Shown piece after piece: positions 2,358 to 40,574 of a stretch of DNA of 43,266 nt; positions within the stretch are counted from its first letter, which is position 1; each line of letters begins with the position of its first letter. The notes beneath the pieces are model-generated. The model did not search any database. It had not been told where the DNA came from and saw only the letters and a program-made list of their open reading frames with translations. Origin of the DNA: an uncultured Candidatus Saccharibacteria bacterium (lineage in GTDB: Bacteria; Patescibacteriota; Minisyncoccia; Minisyncoccales; RBG-13-42-11); NCBI GenBank assembly GCA_964481125.1, contig CAYZSL010000004.1, positions 1-43,266 on the forward strand. Direction: 5' to 3'. The position numbers and the translations under genes are program-made.

Positions 2358-2358
2358 G

Positions 2359-3090: not shown

Positions 3091-3192
3091 AAAAAATATT
3101 CACTTTTGAATATAACACGGATAAAAATTAATATCAAGACAAAGGGTTGATTTTTTTTCCAGCCTTGCTAAGATATTAAAGAACAATTAAAA

Positions 3193-3198
3193 TATTAT
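3193..3198 (+). promoter_or_regulatory. -10 box TATTAT 5 nt before the rpmE ATG
   Basis: TATTAT-CACAT-ATG with no SD. An alternative upstream promoter is TTGATT-16-TAAGAT at about 3138-3165. Confidence 0.4.
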
Positions 3199-3203
3199 CA
3201 CAT

Positions 3204-3434
3204 ATGAAAAAAGATATCCATCCCAAATACCACGAGAACGCCCAAGTCCGCTGCGCCTGCGGAAACGTTTTTACCGTTGGCTCGACAAAAGAATTGATTG
3301 AAGTGGAAGTCTGTTCTTCCTGTCATCCCTTTTACACCGGCAAGGAAAAGAGCATGGACGCCATGGGACAGGTTCAGAAATTCAGAAAAAGACTGGCCAG
3401 GAAAGAAGAGCTGAAAGGAAAAAAGAAAAAGTGA
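3204..3434 (+). CDS. rpmE: 50S ribosomal protein L31
   Basis: MKKDIHPKY..., CxC...[11 protein letters not shown] zinc motif. Confidence 0.95.
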
Positions 3435-3435
3435 A

Positions 3436-12602: not shown

Positions 12603-12631
12603 CAAAAAAGAGGATAATGGAAAACCCTCTT
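12603..12631 (-). terminator. Intrinsic terminator after the 12664..13026 gene
   Basis: Minus strand stem AAGAGG/CCTCTT followed by TTTTTG. Confidence 0.55.
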
Positions 12632-12632
12632 G

Positions 12633-12655
12633 TTGAACGATATTAAAACCTATTT
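12633..12655 (-). repeat. Inter-cassette element, degenerate copy M
   Basis: Plus strand TTGAACGATATTAAAACCTATTT matches the GAACGATGTTAGAACCTGTTTT core. Confidence 0.4.
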
Positions 12656-12663
12656 GGAAAAAT

Positions 12664-13026
12664 TTATTCTCCAGACTTCTTCTTTTGAAGCCAGTTTACA
12701 AAGAAAAGAATTCCAACGATAAAGGATGGGCCCGATATAAAAGCATACCAGGTCCAGGGACGACCAAGTCCAGCCGCATAAATATAGAAAACGGCAAAAG
12801 CGAAAAAAACAATTGCCCCCACTAAATCATATTTCCAGGAAATTGCAACAACTGCCAGTAAAACAAGCGAAGGCATAAGATGCATAAAAAGCGCAAAAAC
12901 TAAATCCCAGCCAGAATATTCCGTAAAAACATCTAAGGCGAACAAAGATAAGAATAAAACAAATGCTATACTTAAAATTCTTGGCAGCCAATGGATAACT
13001 TTTCTTTTATTTATGGATATATTCAT
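12664..13026 (-). CDS. Integral membrane protein (4 predicted TM), unknown function
   Basis: 120-aa hydrophobic ORF with its own TGGTAGAAT promoter and terminator. Confidence 0.6.
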   Translation of the reverse strand: MNISINKRKVIHWLPRILSIAFVLFLSLFALDVFTEYSGWDLVFALFMHLMPSLVLLAVVAISWKYDLVGAIVFFAFAVFYIYAAGLGRPWTWYAFISGPSFIVGILFFVNWLQKKKSGE

Positions 13027-13032
13027 ATTCTC

Positions 13033-13041
13033 ATTCTACCA
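13033..13041 (-). promoter_or_regulatory. Extended -10 TGGTAGAAT 6 nt before the ATG
   Basis: Minus strand reads GGCAGTTTTTTGGTAGAAT-GAGAAT-ATG. Confidence 0.55.
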
Positions 13042-13071
13042 AAAAACTGCCCAAAACAATAGACGGAATAA

Positions 13072-13113
13072 TTGGCTCCTCTGGGGTTATGGGACGATAT
13101 TGAAACCTGTTTT
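13072..13113 (-). repeat. Inter-cassette element, copy A
   Basis: Plus strand TTGGCTCCTCTGGGGTTATGGGACGATATTGAAACCTGTTTT. Part of an 81-nt block (13033-13113) nearly identical to 15021-15101. Confidence 0.8.
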
Positions 13114-13117
13114 GGGT

Positions 13118-13162
13118 AAAAAAAATACCGCCTCAACTAACTGAATTAGTATATTGGCGGTA
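13118..13162 (-). terminator. Terminator after 13169..13546
   Basis: Stem TACCGCC/GGCGGTA with a large loop, followed by T8 on the minus strand. Confidence 0.5.
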
Positions 13163-13168
13163 ATTATT

Positions 13169-13546
13169 CTAGTTTAAGAGATTAAGAGCGACCAATCCTA
13201 TCACCAACAGATGTAGAAGTTGGTCTATACCGAAAACGATAAGATGAATAAAGTTGTCTTTTTCCTTTTTACCTGTCGCAATCCTAAACTTTATACTTTT
13301 TTTTGCCACCCAAGCAAGAAATTCCCATGTCCAGGGCAAATCAATAAACCAATGGGAAATATAGATAAAAAGGAGCCATGATAAATCAAGCTGGAAATAT
13401 AAAAATTGAGGGATGAAAAAGAGTGTATAAAGAAAGCAATGCAGGAAGAACAACTTTCCCTCTCTAAATCTATGTGTAAGAAAATCTCCTAAACCATGTG
13501 CTATTACACCGAAGAAAATGAACACAGCTACCTCGCAATAATCCAC
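13169..13546 (-). CDS. Membrane protein (possibly DUF3307-like), GTG start
   Basis: 125 aa with HGLGDFLTH and SHWFIDL histidine/aspartate motifs in TM helices. AGGAGG lies 9 nt upstream of the GTG. Confidence 0.5.
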   Translation of the reverse strand: MDYCEVAVFIFFGVIAHGLGDFLTHRFREGKLFFLHCFLYTLFFIPQFLYFQLDLSWLLFIYISHWFIDLPWTWEFLAWVAKKSIKFRIATGKKEKDNFIHLIVFGIDQLLHLLVIGLVALNLLN

Positions 13547-13579
13547 TCCTTATGACCTCCTTTCTTTTGTGCTAATAAA

Positions 13580-13608
13580 ATAATAACACATCTCTGTGTT
13601 ATTGTCAA
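13580..13608 (-). promoter_or_regulatory. TTGACA-17-TATTAT promoter with a palindromic spacer
   Basis: The spacer contains the perfect 8-bp inverted repeat ATAACACA/TGTGTTAT (13583-13602). Confidence 0.5.
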
Positions 13609-13613
13609 AGTAT

Positions 13614-13654
13614 CAGCTCTCCCGGGGCTATGGGGCGACGTTAGAACCTGTTTA
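13614..13654 (-). repeat. Inter-cassette element, copy B
   Basis: Plus strand CAGCTCTCCCGGGGCTATGGGGCGACGTTAGAACCTGTTTA. Confidence 0.75.
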
Positions 13655-13676
13655 ATAAAAACTGTCTAATTAGCGA

Positions 13677-13721
13677 TTAAAAATAGAACGAGGGCAATCC
13701 AATTCATATTGAACTGCCCTC
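13677..13721 (-). terminator. Terminator after 13745..14212
   Basis: Stem GAGGGCA/TGCCCTC, then GTTCTATTTTT on the minus strand. Confidence 0.5.
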
Positions 13722-13744
13722 TTTGGTCGTAGCCTATTACAAAG

Positions 13745-14212
13745 CTATAGCTGCATTTGTTTTGCTGTGATCCTCCCATCAACTTCCAAATGGGCCAGCA
13801 TGACGATGACGTCAATGAGCATTATGGCTATTGCCTCATCTACCCAGCCGAAAGCACCAGACACTCCAACCGCAATGCCATCCCGGTAAGCTCCGCCGGA
13901 ATATAGATAATCCCCTTTTCGCAAGATCCATGGCCTAGCCGCTACGATAGCGCTAGTATTGGTTCTTCCTCGTTCGGCTTCTGCCCGTTTACGCTGTGCG
14001 ATCTTAGCAAAGTTCTTGATCTCGCCCCATTTTGGATTCCATTTTACCATTGTTCCAAAACGGAATTTACTCGCTGGCAAACCATTAATCCTTATGTTTC
14101 CCTCCACGTACTTTGGCCCCCATGTCAGTCCTTGGGTTCTGAGCATTGTTTGAGCTGTTGGTTTAATAAATGCAATAGCCTTCAGAATCATTCCCTCTGT
14201 TATGATTGCCAT
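13745..14212 (-). CDS. GlcG/DUF336-like (heme-degrading-like) protein
   Basis: 155 aa. The C-terminal SGGAYRDGIAVGVSGAFGWVDEAIA resembles the DUF336 GG...G.IGVSG...D..A signature. AAGGAGG lies 6 nt upstream of the ATG. Confidence 0.45.
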   Translation of the reverse strand: MAIITEGMILKAIAFIKPTAQTMLRTQGLTWGPKYVEGNIRINGLPASKFRFGTMVKWNPKWGEIKNFAKIAQRKRAEAERGRTNTSAIVAARPWILRKGDYLYSGGAYRDGIAVGVSGAFGWVDEAIAIMLIDVIVMLAHLEVDGRITAKQMQL

Positions 14213-14249
14213 TTTGAACCTCCTTTTTCAATCTTTGATTTATAACAAA

Positions 14250-14278
14250 ACAATGCCATAAAAATATGGTATTGTCAA
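14250..14278 (-). promoter_or_regulatory. TTGACA-17-CATTGT promoter with a palindromic spacer
   Basis: Inverted repeat CAATACCATA/TATGGCATTG spans 14251-14274. Confidence 0.45.
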
Positions 14279-14282
14279 TAAT

Positions 14283-14319
14283 TTGGCTGGGGCTATGGGG
14301 CGATGTTAGAACCTGTTTT
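14283..14319 (-). repeat. Inter-cassette element, copy C
   Basis: Plus strand TTGGCTGGGGCTATGGGGCGATGTTAGAACCTGTTTT. With the adjacent terminator it forms a ~90-nt block nearly identical to 15071-15155. Confidence 0.8.
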
Positions 14320-14324
14320 GTAAC

Positions 14325-14345
14325 AAAAAACCAGCTAATAGGCTG
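14325..14345 (-). terminator. Terminator after the HAD gene
   Basis: Minus strand CAGCctattaGCTG followed by TTTTTT. Confidence 0.6.
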
Positions 14346-14381
14346 ATTTCTTGTCCTAAATAAATCTTTTTTTAGCCAACG

Positions 14382-15014
14382 CTATTTCCTATCTAAATAT
14401 TCAGAAACGATGGAATCAAGCTCTCTAGGTTTCTCGGCAATACGAAACGGATTGCCTTTTAAAAGATTTTCTTTTTTTTGGAATCCCCAAGTGACTCCTA
14501 TTGATTTTACTTTCATAGTGGCCGCTTCTCTTATATCGCCCAATGTATCTGTAATAAGAATACAATCATCAGGTTTTATCTTATATTCGTCGAAAATCAT
14601 CCTAATCTTTTCACACTTGCTGTTATGAACATCATTGCCCATAATTTTATTAAAAAATAAAGAAAGATTATGCCGATCCATAAAATCACGAATGGGACTG
14701 CTGATAGTAGAAGAAATAATAACAAGTATATATTTTTTTCCGAGTTCCCTTATAACGGTTTTAATTCCCCTTATTGTTTTTATCTTTTTCATTAGAGGAT
14801 CATATAGCTTAAAAAATTCTGTATCAATTCGACGTGTTTCTTCTTCGGAGAGCTTAGTTCTTTTTTTCCAATCATTTATATTTCCGTCAAAAAGTCTTCG
14901 GAAATCATCTTCGGTAACAATCTTAGGGTCGATTATTTTATTTATTTCAAGGGCGATATCGAAAGAATCTGCAATAACTCCATCAAAATCAAAAAGTATA
15001 ATTTTCTTTTTCAT
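14382..15014 (-). CDS. HAD-superfamily hydrolase (phosphatase)
   Basis: Motif I FDFDGVIADS, motif II VIISST, motif IV-like ITDTLGDI. Confidence 0.85.
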   Translation of the reverse strand: MKKKIILFDFDGVIADSFDIALEINKIIDPKIVTEDDFRRLFDGNINDWKKRTKLSEEETRRIDTEFFKLYDPLMKKIKTIRGIKTVIRELGKKYILVIISSTISSPIRDFMDRHNLSLFFNKIMGNDVHNSKCEKIRMIFDEYKIKPDDCILITDTLGDIREAATMKVKSIGVTWGFQKKENLLKGNPFRIAEKPRELDSIVSEYLDRK

Positions 15015-15020
15015 TTTTAA

Positions 15021-15029
15021 ATTCTACCA
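15021..15029 (-). promoter_or_regulatory. Extended -10 TGGTAGAAT 6 nt before the ATG
   Basis: Minus strand reads GGCGGTTTTTTGGTAGAAT-TTAAAA-ATG. Confidence 0.55.
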
Positions 15030-15059
15030 AAAAACCGCCCAAAACAATAGACGGAATAA

Positions 15060-15101
15060 TTGGCTCCTCTGGGGCTATGGGATGATGTTGAAACCTGTTT
15101 T
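15060..15101 (-). repeat. Inter-cassette element, copy D
   Basis: Plus strand TTGGCTCCTCTGGGGCTATGGGATGATGTTGAAACCTGTTTT. Confidence 0.8.
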
Positions 15102-15106
15102 GTAAC

Positions 15107-15128
15107 AAAAAAACCAGCTAATAGGCTG
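15107..15128 (-). terminator. Terminator, duplicate of 14325-14345
   Basis: Minus strand CAGCctattaGCTG followed by TTTTTTT. Confidence 0.6.
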
Positions 15129-15220
15129 ATTTCTTGCCCTAAATAAATCTTCTTTTGAACACTTACTTCGGTATTGGTGGCGGAAAATAATAAGTAAGTA
15201 TCATTGAGACTTCCTTATTA

Positions 15221-15535
15221 TTACGCCACCTTAACTATTTGCAAGTCATTAAGTTTAAACTCTCCTCTATCAATCGGAGAATCATACCGGGCACAACCAT
15301 TAACGTCTCGCTTTATAAATTCTCTGATTACAACAGGAACAGTTAATTTTTTTCCAACTAGCTGATTCCAGTTGGGACTCGGCTCTACCCGAAGAATTCT
15401 TATTGCGGTTTTTCTACCACTAAAATTCCCGCCAAGATGGCCAATTATTTTGCCATCTCTACGGACAAATTCGTGATACTCTTTTACCGCAAATTTCCGC
15501 TCATTTTCTCTTAATTCTAAAATATATTCTGGCAA
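15221..15535 (-). CDS. Hypothetical protein (104 aa from a TTG start; the ORF track begins at 15559)
   Basis: AGGAGG (15542-15547) lies 6 nt upstream of the TTG at 15535, giving (M)PEYILELRENE... No recognisable family. Confidence 0.5.
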   Translation of the reverse strand: MPEYILELRENERKFAVKEYHEFVRRDGKIIGHLGGNFSGRKTAIRILRVEPSPNWNQLVGKKLTVPVVIREFIKRDVNGCARYDSPIDRGEFKLNDLQIVKVA

Positions 15536-15572
15536 AATAATCCTCCTTTCATTTTTCAATTGTTAATAATAA

Positions 15573-15601
15573 ACAATACCACATTTTTTTGGTATTGTCA
15601 A
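15573..15601 (-). promoter_or_regulatory. TTGACA-17-TATTGT promoter with a palindromic spacer
   Basis: Inverted repeat CAATACCA/TGGTATTG spans 15574-15597. Confidence 0.5.
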
Positions 15602-15605
15602 TATG

Positions 15606-15637
15606 CCCCCCCCGGGCTATGGGGCGATGTTGGAACC
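15606..15637 (-). repeat. Inter-cassette element, copy E (preceded by a C8 tract)
   Basis: Plus strand CCCCCCCCGGGCTATGGGGCGATGTTGGAACC. Confidence 0.65.
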
Positions 15638-15681
15638 AAGATTCAACAATCTGGTGGGTTTCACGTGCCAGTCTTGGAAAA

Positions 15682-16068
15682 CTATTTCATATAATCTTTT
15701 TTAGCTTCTTCTGATTCCCCAAGCAAGTTATAGTCAATGGTTATTTCTTCACCTGCTTTAATGTCTTTCAAAGCATAGTAATCGTAATTTTTATGATAAG
15801 CATTAGGTGTTTTAGAATGGTTGAGATACCAACCAATTTCCATACAGCCAAAATCTTTAGGGCAACGCAACATTTCGTCCCTATCTATGCAGTATTCTTG
15901 AAAAAAATTAGGAACGCTTTTCTTTTCTCTTAAACCAGATACTTCTACGGTTTCGTCTCCAAACAATCTAAGATATGTTCCCGCCTTAATGTCGTGAACT
16001 GCAAAAACACCCACGCCGTGTTCGGCAGGTTTAATAATAAAAGAAAACTCTGTTGTCTTGTTTTCCAT
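15682..16068 (-). CDS. SET-domain protein (putative protein-lysine methyltransferase)
   Basis: 128 aa with the SET signatures NHSKTPNA and GEEITIDY. Confidence 0.8.
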   Translation of the reverse strand: MENKTTEFSFIIKPAEHGVGVFAVHDIKAGTYLRLFGDETVEVSGLREKKSVPNFFQEYCIDRDEMLRCPKDFGCMEIGWYLNHSKTPNAYHKNYDYYALKDIKAGEEITIDYNLLGESEEAKKDYMK

Positions 16069-16074
16069 ATTTTT

Positions 16075-16083
16075 ATTCTACCA
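16075..16083 (-). promoter_or_regulatory. Extended -10 TGGTAGAAT 6 nt before the ATG
   Basis: Minus strand reads GGCGGTTTTTTGGTAGAAT-AAAAAT-ATG. Confidence 0.55.
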
Positions 16084-16110
16084 AAAAACCGCCTTATTGA
16101 GAAAGCGGTT
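16083..16110 (-). terminator. Hairpin plus T-run directly abutting the SET promoter
   Basis: Stem AACCGC/GCGGTT followed by TTTTT, which runs into the TGG of the -10. Confidence 0.55.
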
Positions 16111-16114
16111 GGAA

Positions 16115-16146
16115 TTAGCTCGCCAAGTCGGACTTGAACCTGCAAG
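16115..16146 (-). pseudogene. Orphan tRNA 3' fragment (T-loop to acceptor end)
   Basis: Minus strand GGTTCAAGTCCGACTTGGCGAGCTA has a canonical T-loop and 3' acceptor strand. There is no matching 5' half within 300 nt. Confidence 0.6.
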
Positions 16147-16265
16147 TTAAGAGGAAATTTGGGTCATTTGGGGAATGGTACACCCACGCGTCTCGGTCAG
16201 GATATTTTAAGCTAAAATGTAACAAATGTTACACTAGAAAGGGTATGTCGAAATGTCTCATTTTA

Positions 16266-16286
16266 GGACGATGTTAGAATGGGTTT
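16266..16286 (-). repeat. Inter-cassette element, truncated copy F
   Basis: Plus strand GGACGATGTTAGAATGGGTTT retains only the core half. Confidence 0.4.
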
Positions 16287-16289
16287 GCA

Positions 16290-16323
16290 AAAATAAAAGC
16301 TGCTGGGCGAAACCATACAGCTT
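16290..16323 (-). terminator. Terminator after 16354..17013
   Basis: Stem AGCTG/CAGCT followed by TTTTATTTTT on the minus strand. Confidence 0.5.
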
Positions 16324-16353
16324 TTTTGGTTTACTGCGTTAAATTATAGATAA

Positions 16354-17013
16354 CTAACCCACTCTCTCCCAACAAGACGGAGTTCCCCACAAAGATTCAT
16401 GGCAATCGTCGATGAATTCTTTACCTAACCGAGGAGTACAGCCAAAACTTGTTAACCATATGGTTGGTATTTTATTTTCTTTCTCCCATCTACTTCCTGC
16501 CGCCCACAGATAATGCCTTGAGAGAACATCCGTTTGTATGCAAAGAGATATGCTTTCTGCCACGGTTAAAGGAGATCTCCCACTCAAAAGAATCTTTCTG
16601 CAGGCCTTCCTCGTATCGACTCCTTTAGTACGCGTGCCATCTTCAATATTAATGGCATAATAAGGATCAAAATACGTTCGTAAAAAGGGCTGTGAGCCAA
16701 CGGCTTCTATAATAGGGTATCTATCTGACATTATTTGAGGATACACATCGCCTTTTTCCTTTCCGTTTCTTACCATTGTCATAAGCACATCCACGCTGCA
16801 ATGGGCGGGAGTTATAACTGGGATAAATGGAATCCTATTAGGATGAAGCTTAATTTGAAGACAAGCCCCTATCACCCTATCTTGCAGTGATCTTTGTCGC
16901 AAAATATCAATTACTTTTTTAGGACAACCAAGATTTTTAAGGATTTCTATTTGGTTATCAAAGAGCTGAGACAACCTATGTATCTTTTCCATTCCTTTTT
17001 TATTGCTTCTCAC
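16354..17013 (-). CDS. Hypothetical protein, 219 aa, GTG start
   Basis: AGGAGG lies 7 nt upstream of the GTG. No family recognised by eye. Cys/Trp-rich C-terminus (GTPSCWERVG). Confidence 0.55.
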   Translation of the reverse strand: MRSNKKGMEKIHRLSQLFDNQIEILKNLGCPKKVIDILRQRSLQDRVIGACLQIKLHPNRIPFIPVITPAHCSVDVLMTMVRNGKEKGDVYPQIMSDRYPIIEAVGSQPFLRTYFDPYYAINIEDGTRTKGVDTRKACRKILLSGRSPLTVAESISLCIQTDVLSRHYLWAAGSRWEKENKIPTIWLTSFGCTPRLGKEFIDDCHESLWGTPSCWERVG

Positions 17014-17077
17014 GTGTGCACCTCCTTTTTCTATTATTTATAAACTATCATTACACGTAAAAAAAATCAAGTCTTAC

Positions 17078-17098
17078 TAAAAACCGCCCAATGGCGGT
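17078..17098 (-). terminator. Hairpin ACCGCC-attg-GGCGGT plus T5
   Basis: Perfect 6-bp GC stem with a T-run on the minus strand, located between element G and the promoter of 16354..17013. Confidence 0.6.
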
Positions 17099-17118
17099 AA
17101 TTTATTATCCACAAGTAA

Positions 17119-17155
17119 TAGCTCCTCCTGGCCGAGTGATATTAGAACTTATTTT
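17119..17155 (-). repeat. Inter-cassette element, divergent copy G
   Basis: Plus strand TAGCTCCTCCTGGCCGAGTGATATTAGAACTTATTTT. The flank TTATTATCCACAAGT is shared with copy I. Confidence 0.5.
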
Positions 17156-17168
17156 CTGATTAACCAAC

Positions 17169-17193
17169 GAAAAACCCCTTAAAGGGGTTTTTC
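17169..17193 (-). terminator. Terminator after the RRM gene
   Basis: Stem AACCCCTT/AAGGGGTT, T-run on both strands. Confidence 0.7.
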
Positions 17194-17199
17194 AATTTC

Positions 17200-17523
17200 T
17201 TACCAGCGATCTCTGTTACCTCTATCAGATCCTCTGTCACCGCGGTTGAATCCGCCTTGTCTGGGAGCTCTCGGCTCCATAGGACGGGCTTCATTCACCG
17301 TAACGTTCCTGCCATCAATCTCTTTGCCGTTGAACATTTCAATCGCTTTTTGTGCCTCTTCGTCAGTAGACATTTCTACAAAGCCGAATCCTTTTGAACG
17401 GTTGCTCATCCTGTCTATAATGACGGCTGCCGATTCAACTGTTCCAGCTGCGGAAAAAGTTTCCTTTAAAGTGGCATCGGTGGTGTTATAAGATAACCCA
17501 CCTACATATAATTTTTTAGCCAT
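17200..17523 (-). CDS. RRM-type glycine/arginine-rich RNA-binding protein
   Basis: RNP-2 LYVGGL, RNP-1 KGFGFVEM, and an RG-rich tail. Confidence 0.9.
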   Translation of the reverse strand: MAKKLYVGGLSYNTTDATLKETFSAAGTVESAAVIIDRMSNRSKGFGFVEMSTDEEAQKAIEMFNGKEIDGRNVTVNEARPMEPRAPRQGGFNRGDRGSDRGNRDRW

Positions 17524-17635
17524 GTTTATTTTTTATTAATTTTATTATCAGTAAGCCGACCAACTATCTTATTTCTATTCTACGGCTTACTTTTAATAAA
17601 ACCTCAAAAGAAATGCAATAGATACTTACATCATC

Positions 17636-17664
17636 ATAATAGCTTATTCTTAATAAAAAGTCAA
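17636..17664 (-). promoter_or_regulatory. TTGACT-17-TATTAT promoter of the RRM gene, giving a ~105-nt 5' UTR
   Basis: Canonical hexamers. The UTR carries an 8-bp hairpin GTAAGCCG/CGGCTTAC (17551-17590). Confidence 0.55.
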
Positions 17665-17799
17665 GGGGTTATTTTTTACTCCTGTGTTTTTTCTTTAAGC
17701 CGATTTTTCGGCGATGCTTTAAAACGAACTTTCTGTGAAGCCGTCTGTTTCTGTTTTTGTTCGGATTGCGTGAATTTTTCATACAGTTTAATCAATTTT

Positions 17800-18072
17800 C
17801 TATCCTTCCTTAATGCTTTCTTTTTCTTTCAATACCGAAGAAGTAAGCCATAAGACAAACGGTCTCCTGAGCTTATCTATGGACCAATTATCGTCCTTAA
17901 AAAGCGAGGCTTTTTCCGTTTTAAAGCGGGAAAGTAAAGAAATAGTGGCTCTCAAATTTGCGGGAGATAATCTGTTATGCTCTTCTAAAAACTCCTCTTT
18001 CTTTAAGTGTTGGTTTATAACTTTTTGAACTTTTTTGAATCTTGGAATCATAGTTTTAAAAATAAAAAACAA
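17800..18072 (-). CDS. Hypothetical protein (start uncertain: TTG at 18072 or ATG at 18051)
   Basis: 90-aa ORF with a plausible composition (KKEEFLEEHNRLSPANLRATISLLSRF). No family recognised. Confidence 0.4.
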   Translation of the reverse strand: MFFIFKTMIPRFKKVQKVINQHLKKEEFLEEHNRLSPANLRATISLLSRFKTEKASLFKDDNWSIDKLRRPFVLWLTSSVLKEKESIKEG

Positions 18073-18221
18073 CTCCTAATAACGGTGAGTCGCAAATAGT
18101 ACTATTAAGTGTTTTTTAATGATAATCTAATAACTATTTGTAGTTCAAAACTCTCAAAACCTATGTTTTTATTATATACCCTTTCTTATAAAAAAGCAAG
18201 CTTTTAGAATTTGAAGAATTA

Positions 18222-18259
18222 TTGGCTCCCCTAGTTGAACGATGTTATAACCTGTTTTT
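18222..18259 (-). repeat. Inter-cassette element, copy H
   Basis: Plus strand TTGGCTCCCCTAGTTGAACGATGTTATAACCTGTTTTT. Confidence 0.65.
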
Positions 18260-18284
18260 ATCAGAAACCGCCTGATCGGCGATT

Positions 18285-18614
18285 TCAATAATTATAAATA
18301 TTTATAGAGTTTAATGTTTGATTGATTGAATCTACCAGCCTTTCAGTAGACCAAATCGTAACGATTATAGATATTATTGTCAAAATTAAAGCGGCAATAC
18401 CAACTCTTTTTAATTTGCCGTCTTTCTGTTTTAAATATTTCCACACATACCAAAGTCCGAACGGCGGCAAAAACAAACTGACTGCATATACGGCTATCTG
18501 CGTTGGCAACGAGACTGAGGGAGGCCTGTCTCTTTGCGGCTTTCCGCAATTGGGGCATGCCAAAGCTTCATCAGATATTTCGTGCCCGCACTCTTTACAT
18601 TTTACTAATGCCAT
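18285..18614 (-). CDS. Zinc-ribbon membrane protein
   Basis: N-terminal CKECGHEISDEALACPNCG zinc ribbon followed by two TM helices. Confidence 0.6.
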   Translation of the reverse strand: MALVKCKECGHEISDEALACPNCGKPQRDRPPSVSLPTQIAVYAVSLFLPPFGLWYVWKYLKQKDGKLKRVGIAALILTIISIIVTIWSTERLVDSINQTLNSINIYNY

Positions 18615-18619
18615 AAATT

Positions 18620-18919
18620 TTAACCCTTTTTGTCTAATTTATCTAATTTCAGCAATTTAACGCCAAAATAAACGACAAAGGCAATTACTAAAAAATCAAT
18701 AAGAACGCTGAGGAAATCTCCCCATAATATTTTTACTTGCCCAATAGCCAAGCTGGCATTTTCCAAACCTTCAACCCTGCCGAGAAAAATACTGAGAGTT
18801 GGGTTTATAATATCCCCGACCAACGCTGACACTAATTTGGAAATAGCGCCGCCCAAAATAAAACCGACTGCCAAACCGACGACTCCCTGTTTCCTTATAA
18901 AATTAATAAAGCCCGACAT
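18620..18919 (-). CDS. mscL: Large-conductance mechanosensitive channel
   Basis: GVVGLAVGFILGGAISKLVSALVGDIINP and DFLVIAFVVYFGVK align with the E. coli MscL TM1/TM2 pattern. Confidence 0.8.
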   Translation of the reverse strand: MSGFINFIRKQGVVGLAVGFILGGAISKLVSALVGDIINPTLSIFLGRVEGLENASLAIGQVKILWGDFLSVLIDFLVIAFVVYFGVKLLKLDKLDKKG

Positions 18920-18952
18920 ATTTTAAAAGCTAATTAATATTAATTCTTTGTT

Positions 18953-19318
18953 TTATCCTCCCAAACACCCTTTTGCCTTGAAAAAATCAATGGGACCAGG
19001 GGAAGCGCCTCCCATTATTTCTTGTACCCGCTCTGCACCCAATGTCTCTGTAAAACACTTTTCCATTTCAGGGGTTATTTGTGCGGGCAAACTGCCAACG
19101 TCGACACCGATTGTTTCCAATAATCTTTCTTGCTCATCGCTAAGCAAAGGATGCTTGTCGCCTTCTCCAGTAGTAATTGGAGTATTGGTTTGGAAGCCAG
19201 TCAATAAATTAGACAAAAGTGGCTTTAAATTAAACGGGTCAAGAGCAATAAAGATAGCAATGGCGATAATAAGAACAAGGAAAATAATGCCCAATGTTAT
19301 AAAGATAGTTTTCAACAT
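18953..19318 (-). CDS. Membrane-anchored hypothetical protein
   Basis: 121 aa with an N-terminal TM helix (IFITLGIIFLVLIIAIAIFIAL). A TGGTAGAAT box sits at 19352-19360, about 33 nt upstream. Confidence 0.5.
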   Translation of the reverse strand: MLKTIFITLGIIFLVLIIAIAIFIALDPFNLKPLLSNLLTGFQTNTPITTGEGDKHPLLSDEQERLLETIGVDVGSLPAQITPEMEKCFTETLGAERVQEIMGGASPGPIDFFKAKGCLGG

Positions 19319-19400
19319 ATTTTTAATAATTTATTTTTTGACCTTTACCCTATTCTACCAAAAAACCGCCACAACAATAAGGCATTATTATCCACAAGTT

Positions 19401-19434
19401 AATTCCTACCCTGATTGAACGATACTAGAATTTT
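19401..19434 (-). repeat. Inter-cassette element, divergent copy I
   Basis: Plus strand AATTCCTACCCTGATTGAACGATACTAGAATTTT. Confidence 0.4.
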
Positions 19435-19438
19435 ATCT

Positions 19439-21337
19439 TTACGGTTTAATATGTTTGAATTTGAAAAGCCGCAAGGAATTTAAAGGAGGAAAGAAATCGG
19501 TCAAAAAGTTATAAGCGGCAGCGGCGCTCGGCCCCAAAAAACCCGCAAAAACCAAAGCTAAACCGACAAAATTGATAACCCCCCACAAAATTAAGTTCTG
19601 GTTTACAATTTTCATTGTTTTCCGGCTCATCTGGATTGAATCAATTATATTTTTCAGATCATCCTTCATTAAAGCAATGTCTGCTGCTTCGATGCTTGCG
19701 TCAGAGCCTATCGCCCCCATAGCAAAACTGACATCCGCTAGAGCCAGGGAGGCTGCGTCATTTACCCCGTCACCGAGCATACCAACCTTATATTTTTTAT
19801 TAAGAGAATTTCTTACGAAATTAACCTTATCCTGGGGTAAAAGATTAGCCCGAAATTCGGCAATGCCAAGTTCTTCTGCTACTCGCTTGGCCACTATTTC
19901 GTTGTCACCGGTTAAAATAACCGTTCTTTCTATACCAAGTTTTTTAAGCTCATTAATAACGTGGTGAGCGTACGGACGAACCGAATCTGAAAGAGCCACA
20001 AACCCAACTAAAAAGCCATCCATTCCGAGGGACACCAACATATGGCCCGAAGATTTTTCCTTTTGAATGGCAGAAATCTCTGCGTCCGAAAAAACAATGC
20101 CGTTATTTTCCAAGAATTTTGTATTTCCCGCCAATACCCTTTTGCTATCTATAACTCCCCCTATCCCATATCCTGCTTCTTCGTGAATTTGGTTTATATC
20201 AGCAATTTTAATGTTTTTATCTTTTAAAAATTTATAAATTGCTTTAGCCGTAGGATGGTTTGATTGCACGAGCAATCCTCCCAATATGCTTAAAAACTTT
20301 TCTTCGGAATAGTTTTTAGAAACAAATATCTGCTTCACTTTTGGCCTGCCTTCGGTAAGCGTTCCGGTTTTGTCGAAAATCATCAGTTTCAGTTTGGTTA
20401 ATCCCTCAATAAAGCTCGCTCCTTTAATAATTATTCCTTTTTTTGCTGCCGTACCGATGGTAGCGACAAAAGCCAAAGGAATGGCTATGGCTATATCGTC
20501 AGCGCAGGTAACAAGCAAAACCGCCAACACCAAAGACAAATTGTGAGTTGCAAAGTAAAGCAAAATACTCCCCAAAAGCGTAAAAAGAATGTAAAAGTTT
20601 GCGAACTTTTCAGTTATCGAAGTAATGGGGGTTTTTTCTTCTTGGGACTTTTCAATCAGTTTCAGAATTTTAGCGAAGGTGGTATCTCGGCCGACTTTTG
20701 TCGTTTTAACTAATAAAGAACCGGAAGCATTCAGGGTTGAACTGAAAACTTCGTCGCCAACAGTTTTGGCTACCGGTTCAGACTCTCCTGTTAATGACGA
20801 CTGGTCAATACTGGCATTCCCCTCTGTGATAATCCCATCGACAGCAATTCTTTCCCCAGACTCCACAACCACCAAATCATCAACTTTTACTTCTTCAATC
20901 GGTTTCTCAATAATCCCCTGTCCGGTTTTGATTAAAACTTTCTTCGGCCTCAACTTCAATAAACTCTGAATGGCTCGCCTTGTTCTGCCTTCAGTAAAGT
21001 AAGTAAGAAACCTTGCCGAGGCAAGCATTAAACTGATAAAAACTGCTGAGTGCAATTCTCCGCTTAATAAGGCAAAAATTAAAGCAATGCTGGCCAAAAG
21101 GTCTATGGTTAATCTCCGATGGATTAAGGCGCGAATGGCGCTGAATAGAACTGGCAAAAGCCCGATTATACTTACCCCTAAAAAAATTACAGTACTTAAG
21201 TTTCCGATAAGAATATGGAAAAGATTTGCAATTAAAACAAAAATAGATAGAACTACTATAAAGACATCAAGCCAAAAATAAAAAGGATTACCAGTTAGCG
21301 CGAATGTAGATATTTTATGATGTTTCCTTTTTAACAT
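19439..21337 (-). CDS. P-type cation-transporting ATPase (P1B-like, no N-terminal metal-binding domain)
   Basis: TGESEP, FDKTGTLTEG, GDGVNDAASLALADV. The TM motif reads VTCADDIAIAIP where P1B pumps have CPC. Confidence 0.85.
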   Translation of the reverse strand: MLKRKHHKISTFALTGNPFYFWLDVFIVVLSIFVLIANLFHILIGNLSTVIFLGVSIIGLLPVLFSAIRALIHRRLTIDLLASIALIFALLSGELHSAVFISLMLASARFLTYFTEGRTRRAIQSLLKLRPKKVLIKTGQGIIEKPIEEVKVDDLVVVESGERIAVDGIITEGNASIDQSSLTGESEPVAKTVGDEVFSSTLNASGSLLVKTTKVGRDTTFAKILKLIEKSQEEKTPITSITEKFANFYILFTLLGSILLYFATHNLSLVLAVLLVTCADDIAIAIPLAFVATIGTAAKKGIIIKGASFIEGLTKLKLMIFDKTGTLTEGRPKVKQIFVSKNYSEEKFLSILGGLLVQSNHPTAKAIYKFLKDKNIKIADINQIHEEAGYGIGGVIDSKRVLAGNTKFLENNGIVFSDAEISAIQKEKSSGHMLVSLGMDGFLVGFVALSDSVRPYAHHVINELKKLGIERTVILTGDNEIVAKRVAEELGIAEFRANLLPQDKVNFVRNSLNKKYKVGMLGDGVNDAASLALADVSFAMGAIGSDASIEAADIALMKDDLKNIIDSIQMSRKTMKIVNQNLILWGVINFVGLALVFAGFLGPSAAAAYNFLTDFFPPLNSLRLFKFKHIKP

Positions 21338-21389
21338 TTTATTAATATTATCTTACCAAAAACCGCCTTTTGTACAAAGCGGCCGAACT

Positions 21390-21415
21390 TGGCTCCGGAG
21401 GTAGGATTCGAACCT
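21390..21415 (-). pseudogene. Orphan tRNA 3' fragment ending in GCCA
   Basis: Minus strand AGGTTCGAATCCTACCTCCGGAGCCA has a canonical T-loop, T-stem 3' strand, acceptor strand and CCA. The 5' part is absent; the gap stop lies 8 nt away. Confidence 0.65.
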
Positions 21416-21423: not shown

Positions 21424-22437
21424 CTACATCTTTTTACTAACATATTCAGCCATCTCAGCCAAACGACAGGCATAAGCCCATTCATTGTCGTACCAAGCAA
21501 CCACCTTAACTAGATTATCGTTCGCCATGGTCAAAGAAGCATCAACAATGGCAGAAAAACAGTTTCCTTTGTAATCGGAAGAAACCAAGATAGCGTCCTC
21601 CACTCCCAAAATAGTATCTAAACTCTTTTCCCGGGAAGCTTTTTTAAAAACATAGTTCACTTCTTCAGCAGTCGTGCTTTTTTCAACTTCGCAAATCAGA
21701 TCCAATATCGAAACCACGGCTGTCGGCACCCTTAAGGCAATACCATCCAGCTTGCCTTTTAATTCCGGCATAACGTTTCCAATGGCTTTGGCAGCGCCAG
21801 TGGTTGTCGGAATAATGTTCATGGCAGCTGCCCTGGCTCGTCTTAAATCATTATGGGGCAGGTCAAGAATCCTTTGGTCATTGGTATAGCTGTGAACCGT
21901 AGTCATAAAGCCTTTAACTATCTTGAAGTTATCGTTCAAGACTTTAGCCACAGGAGCCAAACAATTGGTAGTACAAGAACCCATATCTATCACTTTGTCT
22001 TTTTTTGCGTCAAACTTTTCCTCGTTCACTCCAAGAATGTATGAAGGTATTTTGTCCTGGTCTTTGGAAGGCGCAGAAATTATAACTTTTTTTGCACCGG
22101 CAGCAATATGTTTTAAAGCTCCATTATAATCAGTAAAAACACCTGAGCACTCCAGAACAACATCAACACCCAATTCCTTCCAAGGAAGCTTTGCCGGATC
22201 CTTCTCAGCCAATACTTTTATCTGCTTGCCGTCAATAACCAAAGCAGAACCAGCAGCCTTAACCGACTTATTATAAATGCCGTACAAAGAATCGTATTTC
22301 AAAAGATGGACTAAGGTAGCAGCGTCTGTCAAATCATTAATAGCTACCACTTCCAAATCACGGTGCTTTTCTAAAAGCCTTCTGAGTGTCGGCCGGCCAA
22401 TCCGGCCAAAACCGTTGATTGCGATTTTTACAGCCAT
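21424..22437 (-). CDS. gap: Glyceraldehyde-3-phosphate dehydrogenase
   Basis: INGFGRIGR and the active site SCTTNCLAP. Confidence 0.95.
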   Translation of the reverse strand: MAVKIAINGFGRIGRPTLRRLLEKHRDLEVVAINDLTDAATLVHLLKYDSLYGIYNKSVKAAGSALVIDGKQIKVLAEKDPAKLPWKELGVDVVLECSGVFTDYNGALKHIAAGAKKVIISAPSKDQDKIPSYILGVNEEKFDAKKDKVIDMGSCTTNCLAPVAKVLNDNFKIVKGFMTTVHSYTNDQRILDLPHNDLRRARAAAMNIIPTTTGAAKAIGNVMPELKGKLDGIALRVPTAVVSILDLICEVEKSTTAEEVNYVFKKASREKSLDTILGVEDAILVSSDYKGNCFSAIVDASLTMANDNLVKVVAWYDNEWAYACRLAEMAEYVSKKM

Positions 22438-23868: not shown

Positions 23869-24630
23869 TTAAGCAGCCAGCCAGCCGCCGTCAACCACAA
23901 TAACGGACCCGGTAATATACGATGAATCCTCGGAAACCAAAAATAAAACAGTATTGGAAATTTCTTCTGGTTTGCCCATCCTATGGAGCGGAATCATTGC
24001 CAAGGCTTGCTCTAATATTTTCGGATCGTCTTTGGTCGAGGCAGACATTGGAGTATCAATAGCGCCAGGAGCAATGGCATTAACCCTAATATTATAAGGA
24101 GCCAACTCAACAGCCAAGGTTTTGGTCAAAGCGGCAATTCCTCCCTTTGAGGCCGAATAATGCGCTAAGCCAGCCATACCCTTGCCAATTTGTCCCATCA
24201 CTATGGAAGCAATATTGACGATGACACCGGATTTCTGCTTTGCCATTTCCTTGGCTGCTGTCTGGGCGCAAAGGAAATATCCTTTCAAGTTTATGTCAAT
24301 GGTTTTTTGCCATTCCTCTTCAACCATTTCCAAAAAAGGCTTAAACTGGCAAATGCCGGCATTATTGACTAAGATATCAACCTTTCCCCATTTATCAACC
24401 GCTGCTTTTATCATTTTCTCCACTTCTTCTTTTTTTGAAACATCGCATTTTACAGCTATAGCTTCGCCTCCCGCCTTTTCGATTTCATCAACCACCAGCT
24501 GGCATTCTTCCTGGGAAATATCGGAAAGCAAAACTTTGGCTCCAGATTTAGCCAAAAGCAAAGAATGGGATTTTCCCATTCCCCTCCTGGCTCCGGTAAC
24601 AACGGCTACTTTGTTTTTCAAATCGAACAT
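23869..24630 (-). CDS. Short-chain dehydrogenase/reductase (FabG-like)
   Basis: TGARRGMGKS cofactor motif, NNAG, and the catalytic YSASK. Confidence 0.9.
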   Translation of the reverse strand: MFDLKNKVAVVTGARRGMGKSHSLLLAKSGAKVLLSDISQEECQLVVDEIEKAGGEAIAVKCDVSKKEEVEKMIKAAVDKWGKVDILVNNAGICQFKPFLEMVEEEWQKTIDINLKGYFLCAQTAAKEMAKQKSGVIVNIASIVMGQIGKGMAGLAHYSASKGGIAALTKTLAVELAPYNIRVNAIAPGAIDTPMSASTKDDPKILEQALAMIPLHRMGKPEEISNTVLFLVSEDSSYITGSVIVVDGGWLAA

Positions 24631-40462: not shown

Positions 40463-40531
40463 ATGCTTTAAAAGAATAGGTATATTAGAATAAGTTGCTT
40501 ATTTTGATAGTAGCTTTTTAAACAAAAAAAT

Positions 40532-40566
40532 CAAGCTCCGCGTCGTGAACGACGTTCGAACCTGTT
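40532..40566 (-). repeat. Inter-cassette element, outlying copy J
   Basis: Plus strand CAAGCTCCGCGTCGTGAACGACGTTCGAACCTGTT, with an internal CGTCG/CGACG hairpin. Confidence 0.5.
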
Positions 40567-40574
40567 ATAAATAA

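Follow-up and report, generated by a model that had tools for sequence, protein, structure and literature searches.

A 9-kb stretch of a Patescibacteria (CPR) genome is a variable array of about 10 co-oriented units, most of them a single gene, that end in copies of a ~30-40 nt element derived from the 3' end of tRNA-Gln. The same repeat marks similar arrays, usually starting at a tRNA-Gln gene, across many CPR phyla. The array therefore looks like a tRNA-seeded gene-capture island with an integron-like layout and no visible recombinase. It lies between gap and acs in the window, by which we mean the whole 43,266-nt stretch analysed (uncultured Candidatus Saccharibacteria bacterium, GCA_964481125.1, contig CAYZSL010000004.1). 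Loci from other genomes are designated by L numbers.

A repeated element separates single-gene units between gap and acs

An initial annotation, made from the sequence alone, described an array of thirteen small, functionally unrelated ORFs in about 11 co-oriented units, with one copy of a conserved element at almost every junction. To confirm this we searched the window with the consensus AAAACAGGTTCTAACATCG. This gave 6 matches on the minus strand at up to 3 mismatches (13113, 13654, 14319, 15101, 18258 and 40568), against 0.01 in shuffled sequence. An nhmmer profile built from unrelated genomes recovered the copies at 13107, 13648, 14313, 15095 and 15637 strongly (E 1e-7 to 1e-13) and those at 12650, 16279, 18252 and 40562 weakly, whereas the copies at 17147 and 19430 are degenerate and visible only by eye and in a loose motif search. 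The annotated observation is thus confirmed. Pfam searches likewise confirmed DUF7670, DUF3307, HAD, SET, DUF5701, RRM, zinc ribbon, MscL and a P-type ATPase, plus unknowns, but gave no hit for the 155-aa ORF annotated as GlcG-like. The parts of the array, all on the minus strand and listed from gap towards acs, are as follows, with the copy outside it listed last.

21385..21414 (-): unmodified tRNA-Gln-type 3' fragment (GGTTCGAATCCTACCTCCGGAGCCA) directly after the gap stop codon, read as the proximal pseudo-att site of the array. No full tRNA is present here. The fragment is conserved in relatives L031 and L035, and homology to them ends right after GGAGCC.
19401..21384 (-): unit 1, with a hairpin, T-run and GGTAAGAT promoter, a P-type ATPase ORF (19439-21337) and degenerate element E10 (19401-19434). 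It is absent from L031 and L035, and homology breaks at 21377 and 19360.
18222..19365 (-): unit 2, with a 121-aa ORF, MscL and a zinc-ribbon protein (18953-19318, 18620-18919, 18285-18614), then a terminator and element E9 (18222-18259). It is shared at 93-95% with L031 and L033; L031 carries a DUF7379 gene plus a different element copy in place of E9.
17119..18221 (-): unit 3, with a 90-aa ORF and an RRM protein (17800-18072, 17200-17523), then a terminator and element variant E8 (17119-17155). It is shared by all four relatives.
16266..17118 (-): unit 4, with a DUF5701 ORF (16354-17013), then a terminator and the 5' half of the element (E7, TTCTAACATCGTCC, 16266-16286). It is present only in the window genome.
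16105..16265 (-): a 'long-type' junction element, with a long hairpin, then CCTGACCGAGA..., then a T-arm-like GGTTCAAGTCC, 7 nt, G and CTA. It is a second class of tRNA-3'-like junction site, placed where the 3' half of E7 would be. It is conserved in L031, L033, L007, L027, L006 and L037 (three copies) and has no Rfam hit.
15606..16104 (-): unit 5, with a GGTAGAAT promoter, a SET-domain ORF (15682-16068) and element E6 (15606-15637).
15060..15605 (-): unit 6, with a TTGACA-N17-TATTGT promoter, a 112-aa ORF (15221-15559) and element E5 (15060-15101).
14283..15059 (-): unit 7, with a GGTAGAAT promoter, a HAD hydrolase ORF (14382-15014) and element E4 (14283-14319), which matches the consensus of the initial annotation exactly.
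13614..14282 (-): unit 8, with a TTGACA promoter, the 155-aa ORF (13745-14212), a terminator and element E3 (13614-13654).
13072..13613 (-): unit 9, with a TTGACA promoter, a DUF3307 ORF (13169-13546), a terminator and element E2 (13072-13113).
12628..13071 (-): unit 10, with a GGTAGAAT promoter, a DUF7670 ORF (12664-13026) and degenerate element E1 (12628-12658), followed by the acs promoter. It is shared with L031 and L033.
40530..40568 (-): element copy E12 in a second island, after the terminator of the co-oriented ORF 40632-41120. The next gene is convergent, and so this copy does not precede a co-oriented promoter.

Several details of the initial annotation required correction. The ATPase is 632 aa and so is not small. 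The 121-aa, MscL and zinc-ribbon genes form one unit, and the 90-aa and RRM genes another, giving 10 units. The junction at 16.1-16.3 kb holds only the 5' half of the element, followed by the different ~160-nt element. The annotated GTTnnAAC quasi-palindrome is the remnant of a tRNA T-loop (GGTTCGAA), and the GGAGCC(A) end is a tRNA-Gln acceptor 3' strand plus discriminator plus CCA. Terminator-like hairpins are enriched (18 against 8.0 +/- 3.5). Generic promoter-like matches are not (28 against 26), but specific strong ones sit at the junctions.

We next looked for an enzyme that might act on these sites. No integrase or transposase was found in the window, either by Pfam on 40 ORFs (including all 14 in the gap-acs interval and 16 of the 18 large ORFs between 22.6 and 43.2 kb) or by motif scan; the ORFs at 1573-8282 and 23869-24630 were left out of this search but match precomputed housekeeping Pfam annotations in the relatives. 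A crude motif search of the roughly 0.8 Mb of element-bearing loci returned only one Xer-like gene, which is no more than chance, and no integrase remnants.

The element derives from the 3' end of tRNA-Gln

Comparison with tRNA genes revealed the origin of the repeat. It corresponds to the 3' end of tRNA-Gln from the T-loop to the discriminator base, with a hallmark 5-nt insertion (CATCG) in the T-loop. The copy at L051+1738 matches 23 of 26 positions of the local tRNA-Gln 3' end, with a single 5-nt gap (CATCG) in the T-loop, and the canonical element aligns in the same way. The window fragment at 21414 matches 21 of 26 positions, without gaps, against the 3' end of a real CPR tRNA-Gln (L025). 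Consistent with this, the last bases of the element track the local tRNA-Gln acceptor end (CCCCAAC in L022, CCCGAAC in L029).

We then asked where the element occurs in other genomes. In 109 loci retrieved only by the element pattern, 19 of 46 distinct tRNAs are tRNA-Gln (binomial p=2.6e-14). In those loci 34 of 35 element copies are on the tRNA's strand, and the first copy lies a median of 774 nt downstream of the tRNA. The single genes between the tRNA and the first element are unrelated to each other (HIT, MazG-like, DUF2726-like), even though the upstream genes are orthologous. The element lies a median of 40 nt after the stop codon of a co-oriented ORF, and the modified version is conserved almost base for base in Saccharibacteria, Paceibacteria, Moranbacteria, Jorgensenbacteria and others. 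It was not found in phage contigs.

Further features are signs of a DNA-level rather than an RNA-level element. There is no excess fold stability (z from -1.0 to +1.0, none significant) and no match to an Rfam family. In this genome a terminator often precedes the element. Its orientation follows the array even where a unit holds a reversed gene (patatin in L014, GT2 in L037), and in two cases unrelated ORFs run into the element and use its stop codon.

Cassette content varies between relatives with breakpoints at the element

To evaluate the variability of the locus we compared it with close relatives. The gap and acs flanks are syntenic in L031, L033/L034 and L035 (Acs 96%, 96% and 88% identical), but the cassettes differ. 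After the RRM unit, three genomes share the whole element variant E8, diverge exactly after its 3' end and continue into three different downstream cassettes. Two cassettes recur with different neighbours, with homology running from element to element. The DUF3307 unit is 86% identical to L031 7086..7656, where the neighbours differ on both sides. The stretch 14289..13640, carrying the 155-aa ORF, is 94.6% identical to L037 8448..9097, a different locus with different neighbours; here homology starts right after the upstream junction element and ends inside E3. Units with canonical elements (SET, 112 aa, HAD, 155 aa) are the strain-specific ones, whereas units with degenerate elements (RRM, the MscL block, DUF7670) are shared by relatives.

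Breakpoints are not all at one position, however. Some lie right after the element, some at the T-run/GGTAGAAT box, and one appears to lie inside the element. The DUF7379 difference between L031 and the window is a replacement, not a clean insertion flanked by two copies, and the near-identical strain pairs (L031/L032, L033/L034) show no cassette differences, so that recent activity is not demonstrated.

The initial annotation had named in advance an outcome that would count against it, namely that the element follows most terminators regardless of gene conservation and that gene order is invariant. This was not observed. Element copies are confined to the arrays and absent from about 12 kb of conserved flank in each relative, and SET homologues in other Parcubacteria, which lie inside operons, lack the element.

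A proposed model of tandem accretion at tRNA-Gln-type sites

These data allow us to propose, with moderate confidence, that the junction element is a DNA-level attachment-type site and that the gap-acs interval is an additive island built by repeated insertion, replacement and loss of small units, each consisting of a promoter, an ORF, an optional terminator and the element. In this model insertions occur at tRNA-Gln-type sites, so that every unit would carry one copy at its 3' end and all units would share one orientation. In many other CPR genomes the array would be seeded by an intact tRNA-Gln gene, whereas in this genus the seed would be the bare tRNA-Gln 3' fragment after gap. The tRNA-Gln origin of the element, the anchoring at tRNA-Gln, the polarity of the array and the variability between relatives with breakpoints at the element are all established by our analysis. 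We infer that a site-specific recombinase acting in trans, probably a tyrosine integrase of the tRNA-targeting kind, does the joining; that cassettes pass through a circular or otherwise transferable form; and that the strong cross-phylum conservation of the modified site reflects recognition by that enzyme. Against this model stand the lack of a detectable recombinase, the spread of breakpoints and the absence from the element of clear dyad symmetry of the 11-6-11 kind.

The interpretation offered in the initial annotation is thus partly supported. The region is a real array of cassette-like units bounded by a conserved site, the site is not an attC, and of the two analogies that were drawn, with integron cassette arrays (CALINs) and with tandem accretion at an att site, our data favour the latter. 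That a dedicated cassette-capture platform exists, as was suggested, is not shown; no recombinase, circular intermediate or empty site was seen.

Other explanations are possible but appear less likely. The conserved junction modules (the element, and the hairpin/T-run/GGTAGAAT box) could act only as short portable homology, with no dedicated enzyme, cassettes being exchanged by RecA-type recombination or gene conversion, for example after natural transformation, which CPR bacteria are thought to use, and lost by deletion between direct repeats. The several breakpoint positions and the fact that no recombinase is found nearby fit this view, as do the mosaic junctions, in which the left side of the 15.1-kb junction matches the 14.3-kb junction and its right side the 13.1-kb junction. 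We consider it unlikely, although the least so of the alternatives, because the shared segments are only about 14-40 nt long and the RRM unit's element variant shares fewer than 10 consecutive bases with canonical copies, yet three different cassettes are joined exactly at its end. Homology alone also does not explain why a tRNA-Gln-derived sequence with the same 5-nt insertion is kept nearly invariant across phyla, or why arrays start at tRNA-Gln. Somewhat more doubtful is that the copies are inert scars, partial tRNAs left by ordinary integrase-carrying islands or prophages that integrated at tRNA-Gln and decayed to single genes, as in a classic tycheposon-like additive island, with nothing special about the repeat. 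Partial tRNAs scattered through tRNA-seeded islands of streamlined genomes are described for Prochlorococcus (bioRxiv 10.1101/2020.12.28.424599), the arrays here are anchored at tRNA-Gln, and some copies are degenerate. Scars should, however, match the local tRNA and then decay at random, whereas here one modified version is conserved across phyla, units are regularly one gene long with the repeat close after the stop codon, and no integrase remnants were detected by the motif scan in about 0.8 Mb.

A role in RNA, as a 3'-UTR or processing signal for stand-alone genes (a tRNA-like decoy, a C-rich Rho-loading site or a protein-binding site), is similarly doubtful; in this view the element would travel with these genes because it is useful to them, and array variability would come from unrelated gene turnover. 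The element is always co-oriented with the upstream ORF and close to its stop codon, in most other genomes a terminator-like hairpin follows it (38 of 66) rather than precedes it (23 of 66), it is unstructured, C-rich and G-poor, and its variable positions mimic third-codon positions in the frame G-S-N-I-V-P-stop. In the window, however, strong terminators usually come before the element, and its orientation follows the array, not the nearest gene. As genes of the same family lack it when they sit in operons, unrelated genes must in any case acquire it through a DNA event. Insertions of 24, 28, 32 and 56 nt inside the element do not preserve any reading frame, and it matches no known RNA family. 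It is still less likely that the element is itself a tiny tRNA-derived, REP/MITE-like mobile repeat that inserts downstream of genes in regions that tolerate it. It has many copies, lies in intergenic 3' positions and has variants carrying nested 24-56 nt inserts, but it is not palindromic, has no terminal repeats, and the only Y1 transposase seen was in a locus without the element. Such a model also does not explain the cassette differences between relatives or the tRNA-Gln anchoring. A classical integron or CALIN, meaning attC sites without an integrase, shares the array layout but is effectively refuted, as there is no R''/L''-L'/R' hairpin, sequence rather than structure is conserved, each cassette has its own promoter, no intI is present and the site is homologous to a tRNA.

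Comparison with known systems

The closest known systems are the tRNA-seeded additive genomic islands with scattered partial tRNAs (Prochlorococcus islands/tycheposons; bioRxiv 10.1101/2020.12.28.424599) and, more generally, tandem accretion of integrative elements at tRNA genes (Williams 2002, cited therein). Both occur in streamlined genomes, and in both the island begins at a specific tRNA gene, copies of the tRNA 3' part recur through the island in one orientation, content is highly variable between close relatives and the cargo consists of small accessory genes. In contrast, units here are single genes of 0.45-1.9 kb, each with one repeat, rather than multi-kb elements, and the repeat is a modified tRNA end conserved across phyla, not a copy of the local tRNA. 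No integrase or its remnants were found in or near about 110 arrays, and in the window lineage there is no tRNA gene at all, only the 3' fragment after gap.

Integron cassette arrays and CALINs are likewise arrays of co-oriented, mostly single-gene cassettes of unrelated function, with a recombination-site-like repeat at the 3' end of each cassette, an ORF that occasionally ends inside the site and content that varies between strains. The site here is instead a ~30-nt conserved, unstructured, tRNA-derived sequence, not a structure-conserved attC hairpin; cassettes carry their own promoters, and there is no intI, attI or Pc. Xer-dependent modules (IMEX elements at dif; pdif modules of Acinetobacter plasmids) also involve small gene modules bounded by copies of a ~28-nt site and moved by recombinases encoded elsewhere in the genome, a mode of movement that is only inferred for the present array. 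The element shows no dif-like 11-6-11 dyad or ATAA/TTAT core, all copies are direct repeats whereas pdif sites alternate in orientation, and the array is not at a skew switch. Finally, REP/BIME-type intergenic repeats are also short repeats located after genes, but REPs are palindromic, species-specific and genome-wide, whereas this element is non-palindromic, shared across phyla and confined to variable arrays.

A variable gene array between gap and acs

The window is a Patescibacteria (Paceibacteria/Nealsonbacteria-like) contig, the Acs protein of which is 96% identical to proteins annotated as Candidatus Pacebacteria and Nealsonbacteria. Nearly all genes are on the minus strand, and the features to which we refer below are as follows.

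21424-22437, gap, at the head of the array
10655-12574, acs, at the other end of the array
21414-21385, unmodified tRNA-Gln-type 3' fragment directly after gap (GGTTCGAATCCTACCTCCGGAGCCA)
17147 and 19430, degenerate copies of the element
16105-16265, minus strand, ~160-nt 'long-type' junction element
13033-13060, 15021-15054, 16075-16110, 19352-19385, 21350-21380 and 34496-34530, minus strand, promoter-like module
13580-13608, 14250-14278 and 15573-15601, minus strand, second promoter type
~17095-17115 and ~19385-19398, minus strand, sequence resembling a DnaA box
38579-39078, minus strand, 162-aa ORF of the second island
41815-43179, minus strand, 454-aa protein with PD-(D/E)XK nuclease and RNase_H_2 domains, next to the second island
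1-318, minus strand, 5' end of a 16S rRNA gene, cut by the window edge
1468-1538, minus strand, tRNA-Thr(TGT)

Between gap and acs lie 14 ORFs in 10 units. Searches against Pfam identified a P-type ATPase, MscL, a zinc-ribbon protein, RRM, DUF5701, SET, HAD, DUF3307 and DUF7670, whereas five ORFs had no hit. To confirm that the element described in the initial annotation is real, we compared its 19-mer consensus with the window and obtained 6 matches at up to 3 mismatches, against 0.01 expected. A profile built from other genomes recovered five strong and four weak copies, and two further copies (17147, 19430) are degenerate. The observation of an array of genes separated by a recurrent element therefore held. 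Pfam on 40 of the window's ORFs and a motif scan of all ORFs of 90 aa or more identified no integrase or transposase, and the ORFs outside the Pfam search correspond to housekeeping genes already annotated in the syntenic relatives.

Each unit has its own strong promoter-like module. One such module, shared by distant CPR phyla, consists of a GC hairpin (CGCC..GGCGG), T5-6, GGTAGAAT and 6-8 nt before ATG, which would give leaderless-type mRNA; it is also found in L012, L027 and L028 (here and below, L numbers denote retrieved loci). At 34.5 kb this module sits in a divergent intergenic region without any element, so the hairpin is not simply the terminator of the previous gene. A second promoter type, TTGACA-N17-TATTGT/TATTAT, has a spacer and -10 box that form a palindrome (ACAATAcc...ggTATTGT), which could be an operator, and it also occurs in L003, L031, L033 and L037.

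The element is widespread in Patescibacteria and lies at gene 3' ends

To evaluate the distribution of the element, we scanned one genome per species (GTDB) for GGTTNNAAYRTCRYCCCATARCC. This returned 29 loci, most of which are Patescibacteria of many lineages (Saccharibacteria, Paceibacterota, Moran-, Jorgensen- and Wildermuthbacteria). Two are Acidimicrobiia, at least three (L016, L019, L030) look like chance or coding matches, and a few others carry non-Patescibacteria or unassigned labels. A metagenome scan added 84 loci. A profile search found 241 copies in the 109 non-redundant loci, often 4-9 per 8 kb (L012, L021, L015), and the core GGTTCYAACATCGTCCCATAGCCCCAGC is almost invariant across these phyla. 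In contrast, a scan of viral contigs gave a single hit, inside a gene, which is a chance match; we therefore rejected a phage att site. In the two Acidimicrobiia loci (L010 2013-2165; L026 1861-2010), a conserved non-coding stretch of about 150 nt contains two element-like copies (GGGGTTCGAAYRTMGTCCCAT...) with the same T-loop insertion but a different acceptor-like end (CCTCCACC), and there are no cassettes around it.

The element lies a median of 40 nt after the stop codon of a co-oriented ORF. A terminator-like hairpin follows it in 38 of 66 cases and precedes it in 23, and in two cases unrelated ORFs run into it and use its TAG.

The element is a modified tRNA-Gln 3' end

Analysis of the retrieved loci with ARAGORN showed a striking excess of tRNA-Gln, with 19 of 46 distinct tRNAs being tRNA-Gln (binomial p=2.6e-14 against 2/45). 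In those loci, 34 of 35 element copies are on the strand of the tRNA, and the first copy lies a median of 774 nt downstream of its 3' end. This same-strand arrangement is found in 17 related loci; the window has only a 3' fragment after gap.

Alignment shows why. One copy (L051+1738) matches the local tRNA-Gln 3' end at 23 of 26 positions with a single 5-nt gap, GGTTCTAA[CATCG]TCCAGGCCCCGCAAC against GGTTCGAA-TCCAAGCCCCGCAGC, and the canonical element aligns the same way with two further small indels. All copies carry the 5-nt T-loop insertion, so they are modified copies of the tRNA 3' part. The end of the canonical element, AGCCCCA-G-C, is a tRNA-Gln-type acceptor strand (A72, G73), and the last bases follow the local tRNA (CCCCAAC in L022, CCCGAAC in L029). 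In the window, the sequence directly after gap (21414-21385) is an unmodified tRNA-Gln-type 3' fragment, which aligns without gaps to the tRNA-Gln of L025, but no tRNA gene is present. The window-genus variant '...CCCCAG(A/G)GGAGCCA' looks like the canonical element fused to the acceptor end of this lineage.

The genes between tRNA-Gln and the first element are single and unrelated (HIT, MazG-like, DUF2726-like, a nucleotidyltransferase), although the genes upstream of the tRNA are orthologous, either prfB-ftsE-ftsX or a 373-aa protein. We looked for cross-phylum sharing of cassettes by an all-against-all BLASTP of ORFs from the loci, which showed mainly shared housekeeping genes upstream of tRNA-Gln and no clearly transferred cassettes. 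A sequence resembling a DnaA box (TTGTGGATAA) lies in a small AT hairpin that follows some element copies (window ~17095-17115 and ~19385-19398, minus strand; L031_7618; L037 ~9690) and also follows genuine tRNA-Gln genes (L004 and L013). This suggests that those copies carry the original downstream flank of the tRNA.

Two further sequence types are associated with the junctions. Inserts of 24-56 nt (for example CCTTCGATGCGACTCAGGGCRGGC and ACTACGACTCGCTTCGCTCGCTCAGTGCAGGC) sit inside the element between GGTTCTAAC and ATCGTCC, that is, inside the former T-loop (L037 9079-9145, 11081-11176, 13252-13303; L031 2787; L021 3126, 4359, 5838). Related versions occur in different phyla, and similar sequence also follows the gap fragment in L031. 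The ~160-nt 'long-type' junction element (window 16105-16265, minus strand; L031 2040-2215; L033 1-145; L007, L027, L006; three copies in L037) has a long hairpin (AAATGAGACA..TGTCTCATTT), then CCCCGACCGAGA...GAGACAC..., then a well-formed T-arm, 7 nt, G and CCA. It occupies the same niche as the short element and matches no Rfam family, and could be a second att-type site or an unknown small RNA.

Array content varies between relatives, with breakpoints at the element

Contigs encoding the closest Acs proteins gave four relatives with the same flanks, namely glutaredoxin followed by gap on one side and acs, ppdk, pfkB, fba, L25 and onward on the other. The interiors differ, as listed here with units separated by semicolons.

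Window: ATPase; 121-MscL-Zn; 90-RRM; DUF5701; SET; 112; HAD; 155; DUF3307; DUF7670
L031: 241; 196; LDcluster4; 121-MscL-Zn; DUF7379; 83-RRM; NADAR; V4R; DUF3307; 153; NYN; DUF7670
L033: ...97; 121-MscL-Zn; 83-RRM; 121; 62; 111; DUF7670
L035: 86; RRM; 152

We then located the breakpoints by BLASTN and direct alignment of the junctions. After gap, homology ends right after GGAGCC. After RRM, three genomes share the whole (atypical) element variant and then diverge exactly at its 3' end into three different cassettes. The DUF3307 unit is homologous from element to element (86%) but has different neighbours. The 155-aa unit is 94.6% identical to a stretch of L037, a different locus in the same sample as relative L032, and homology begins right after the upstream junction element and ends inside the downstream one. 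Other left boundaries, however, fall at the T-run/GGTAGAAT box, and one difference (DUF7379) is a replacement rather than a clean insertion. Related genomes thus show presence/absence polymorphism of units with boundaries at the repeats.

Element copies occur only inside the arrays and are absent from the conserved flanks of the relatives. SET homologues that lie inside operons in other Parcubacteria have no element. Units with canonical elements are the strain-specific ones, whereas units with degenerate elements are shared. In addition, the 162-aa ORF of the window's second island (38579-39078, minus strand) is 82% identical in DNA to an ORF in the L037 array (5894-6393), where it is followed by an element copy; in the window it is not.

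Evidence for a DNA-level site

Four observations favour a DNA-level site with array polarity. Eight element variants fold no better than shuffles (z -1.0 to +1.0, none significant), and no element matches Rfam (Rfam 15), where only the 16S rRNA and tRNA-Thr reach the gathering threshold and nothing overlaps any element at E up to 10. In this genome strong terminators usually precede the element. Its orientation follows the array even where a unit contains a reversed gene (patatin in L014, GT2 in L037). Finally, the copy at 40.5 kb is followed by a convergent gene.

Other identities for the element were evaluated and rejected. Variable positions mimic synonymous sites of G-S-N-I-V-P-stop, including TAG/TAA, which suggested a coding function. 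However, most copies have no upstream ORF or start codon, the inserts of 24, 28, 32 and 56 nt ignore any reading frame, and the T-loop and acceptor origin explains the pattern well enough. An antisense promoter was considered because the reverse complement reads TTGCTG-N17-TAGAAC, but about 40% of copies have G at the critical -10 position 2. A structured RNA or attC-like hairpin was rejected on the folding and Rfam results, and a dif/Xer site, LexA box, DnaA box or uptake sequence does not fit the consensus, the copy number or the distribution.

Candidate mobilising enzymes

A motif scan, of limited sensitivity, of all ORFs in about 0.8 Mb of loci gave one Xer-like gene (L124), which is consistent with chance, and no serine recombinase. 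Small stand-alone GIY-YIG nuclease genes lie directly after an element copy in L002 (6498-6737) and L037/L038 (6526-6780) and directly upstream of a tRNA-Gln gene in L013 (152-514), while the copy in L054 (6663-7046) is about 1.2 kb from the nearest element. With only 4 in 0.8 Mb, these are too few to call an association, and a GIY-YIG nuclease as mobiliser was rejected. The only Y1_Tnp gene seen is in L041, a locus that has no element.

Model for array formation

The simplest account of these data is tandem accretion at tRNA-Gln-type att sites. In this view, a unit carrying the element recombines with the tRNA-Gln 3' end, or with another element copy, such that each unit would end in one copy and all units would share one direction. 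Given that no integrase appears in the window or, beyond one Xer-like gene, in about 0.8 Mb of arrays, the enzyme must act in trans, or the arrays are maintained by other means. The alternatives are short-homology recombination, inert scars, an RNA function or a mobile mini-repeat. Weighed against these, we consider the site-specific model about as likely as not. The tRNA-Gln origin, the spread across the CPR and the variability of the arrays are solid, whereas the recombination mechanism is an inference. The interpretation in the initial annotation, which likened the array to integron cassettes or to tandem accretion at an att site and raised the possibility of an undescribed cassette-capture platform, is partly supported.

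A broader hypothesis, which we regard as possible but less likely than not, is that Patescibacteria share an undescribed gene-cassette system. Ordinary single genes would become mobile by carrying a modified tRNA-Gln 3' end as their recombination site, and a recombinase encoded elsewhere would insert them in tandem downstream of tRNA-Gln or of pseudo-sites. This would be a functional analogue of integrons, invented from a tRNA att site and operating across a whole superphylum of reduced genomes.

CPR bacteria have tiny genomes and few recognised mobile elements, yet they exchange genes. Here a single ~30-nt sequence tag marks the variable, single-gene part of their genomes in many phyla and ties that variability to one tRNA gene. 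If the tag is an active recombination site, it would explain how these organisms gain and lose accessory genes, and would provide a second, independent example of integron-like cassette organisation, one whose origin from a tRNA att site is still readable. That bears on how cassette sites and genes first become associated. In practice, the tag is a simple probe for finding the flexible gene pool of CPR genomes in metagenomes, and a candidate landing site for genetic tools.

Comparison with known systems

We found no description of this arrangement in the searchable literature, either by the sequence itself or by the topic of CPR together with integrons or cassettes. The array is not an integron. 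An attC site is an imperfect palindrome (R''-L''...L'-R') that folds as a single-strand hairpin, with structure conserved rather than sequence, whereas the element shows no excess fold stability and its sequence is conserved almost base for base. The head of an integron carries the tyrosine recombinase intI with attI and Pc (absent in CALINs), but here gap lies at the head of the array and Pfam on 40 window ORFs and a motif scan found no recombinase. Integron cassettes are co-oriented, mostly promoterless single genes, each followed by one site; the layout here fits, although each unit has its own strong promoter-like module. A Xer/dif-type site has two ~11-bp inverted arms around a 6-8 bp spacer. 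In a manual comparison with dif sequences, the consensus of the element has at best 6 of 11 symmetric positions and no ATAA/TTAT inner arms. REP/RAYT repeats are palindromic ~35-nt units with an associated Y1 (RAYT) transposase and genome-wide intergenic spread, whereas the element is not palindromic and is confined to arrays.

The arrangement is best placed with tRNA-seeded additive islands, with an integron-like cassette organisation. As in such islands, direct repeats derived from the tRNA 3' part lie at unit boundaries, and units show presence/absence polymorphism between related genomes; the integrase (tyrosine or serine recombinase) that the inserted units or their remnants carry in such islands did not appear here. 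Tandem accretion is the model proposed for the tRNA-seeded islands of Prochlorococcus, where partial tRNAs separate and litter the inserted material (bioRxiv 10.1101/2020.12.28.424599). Three things differ here: no integrase appears in the window or, beyond one Xer-like gene, in about 0.8 Mb of arrays, the units are single genes, and the repeat is one modified version of the tRNA-Gln 3' end kept across phyla.
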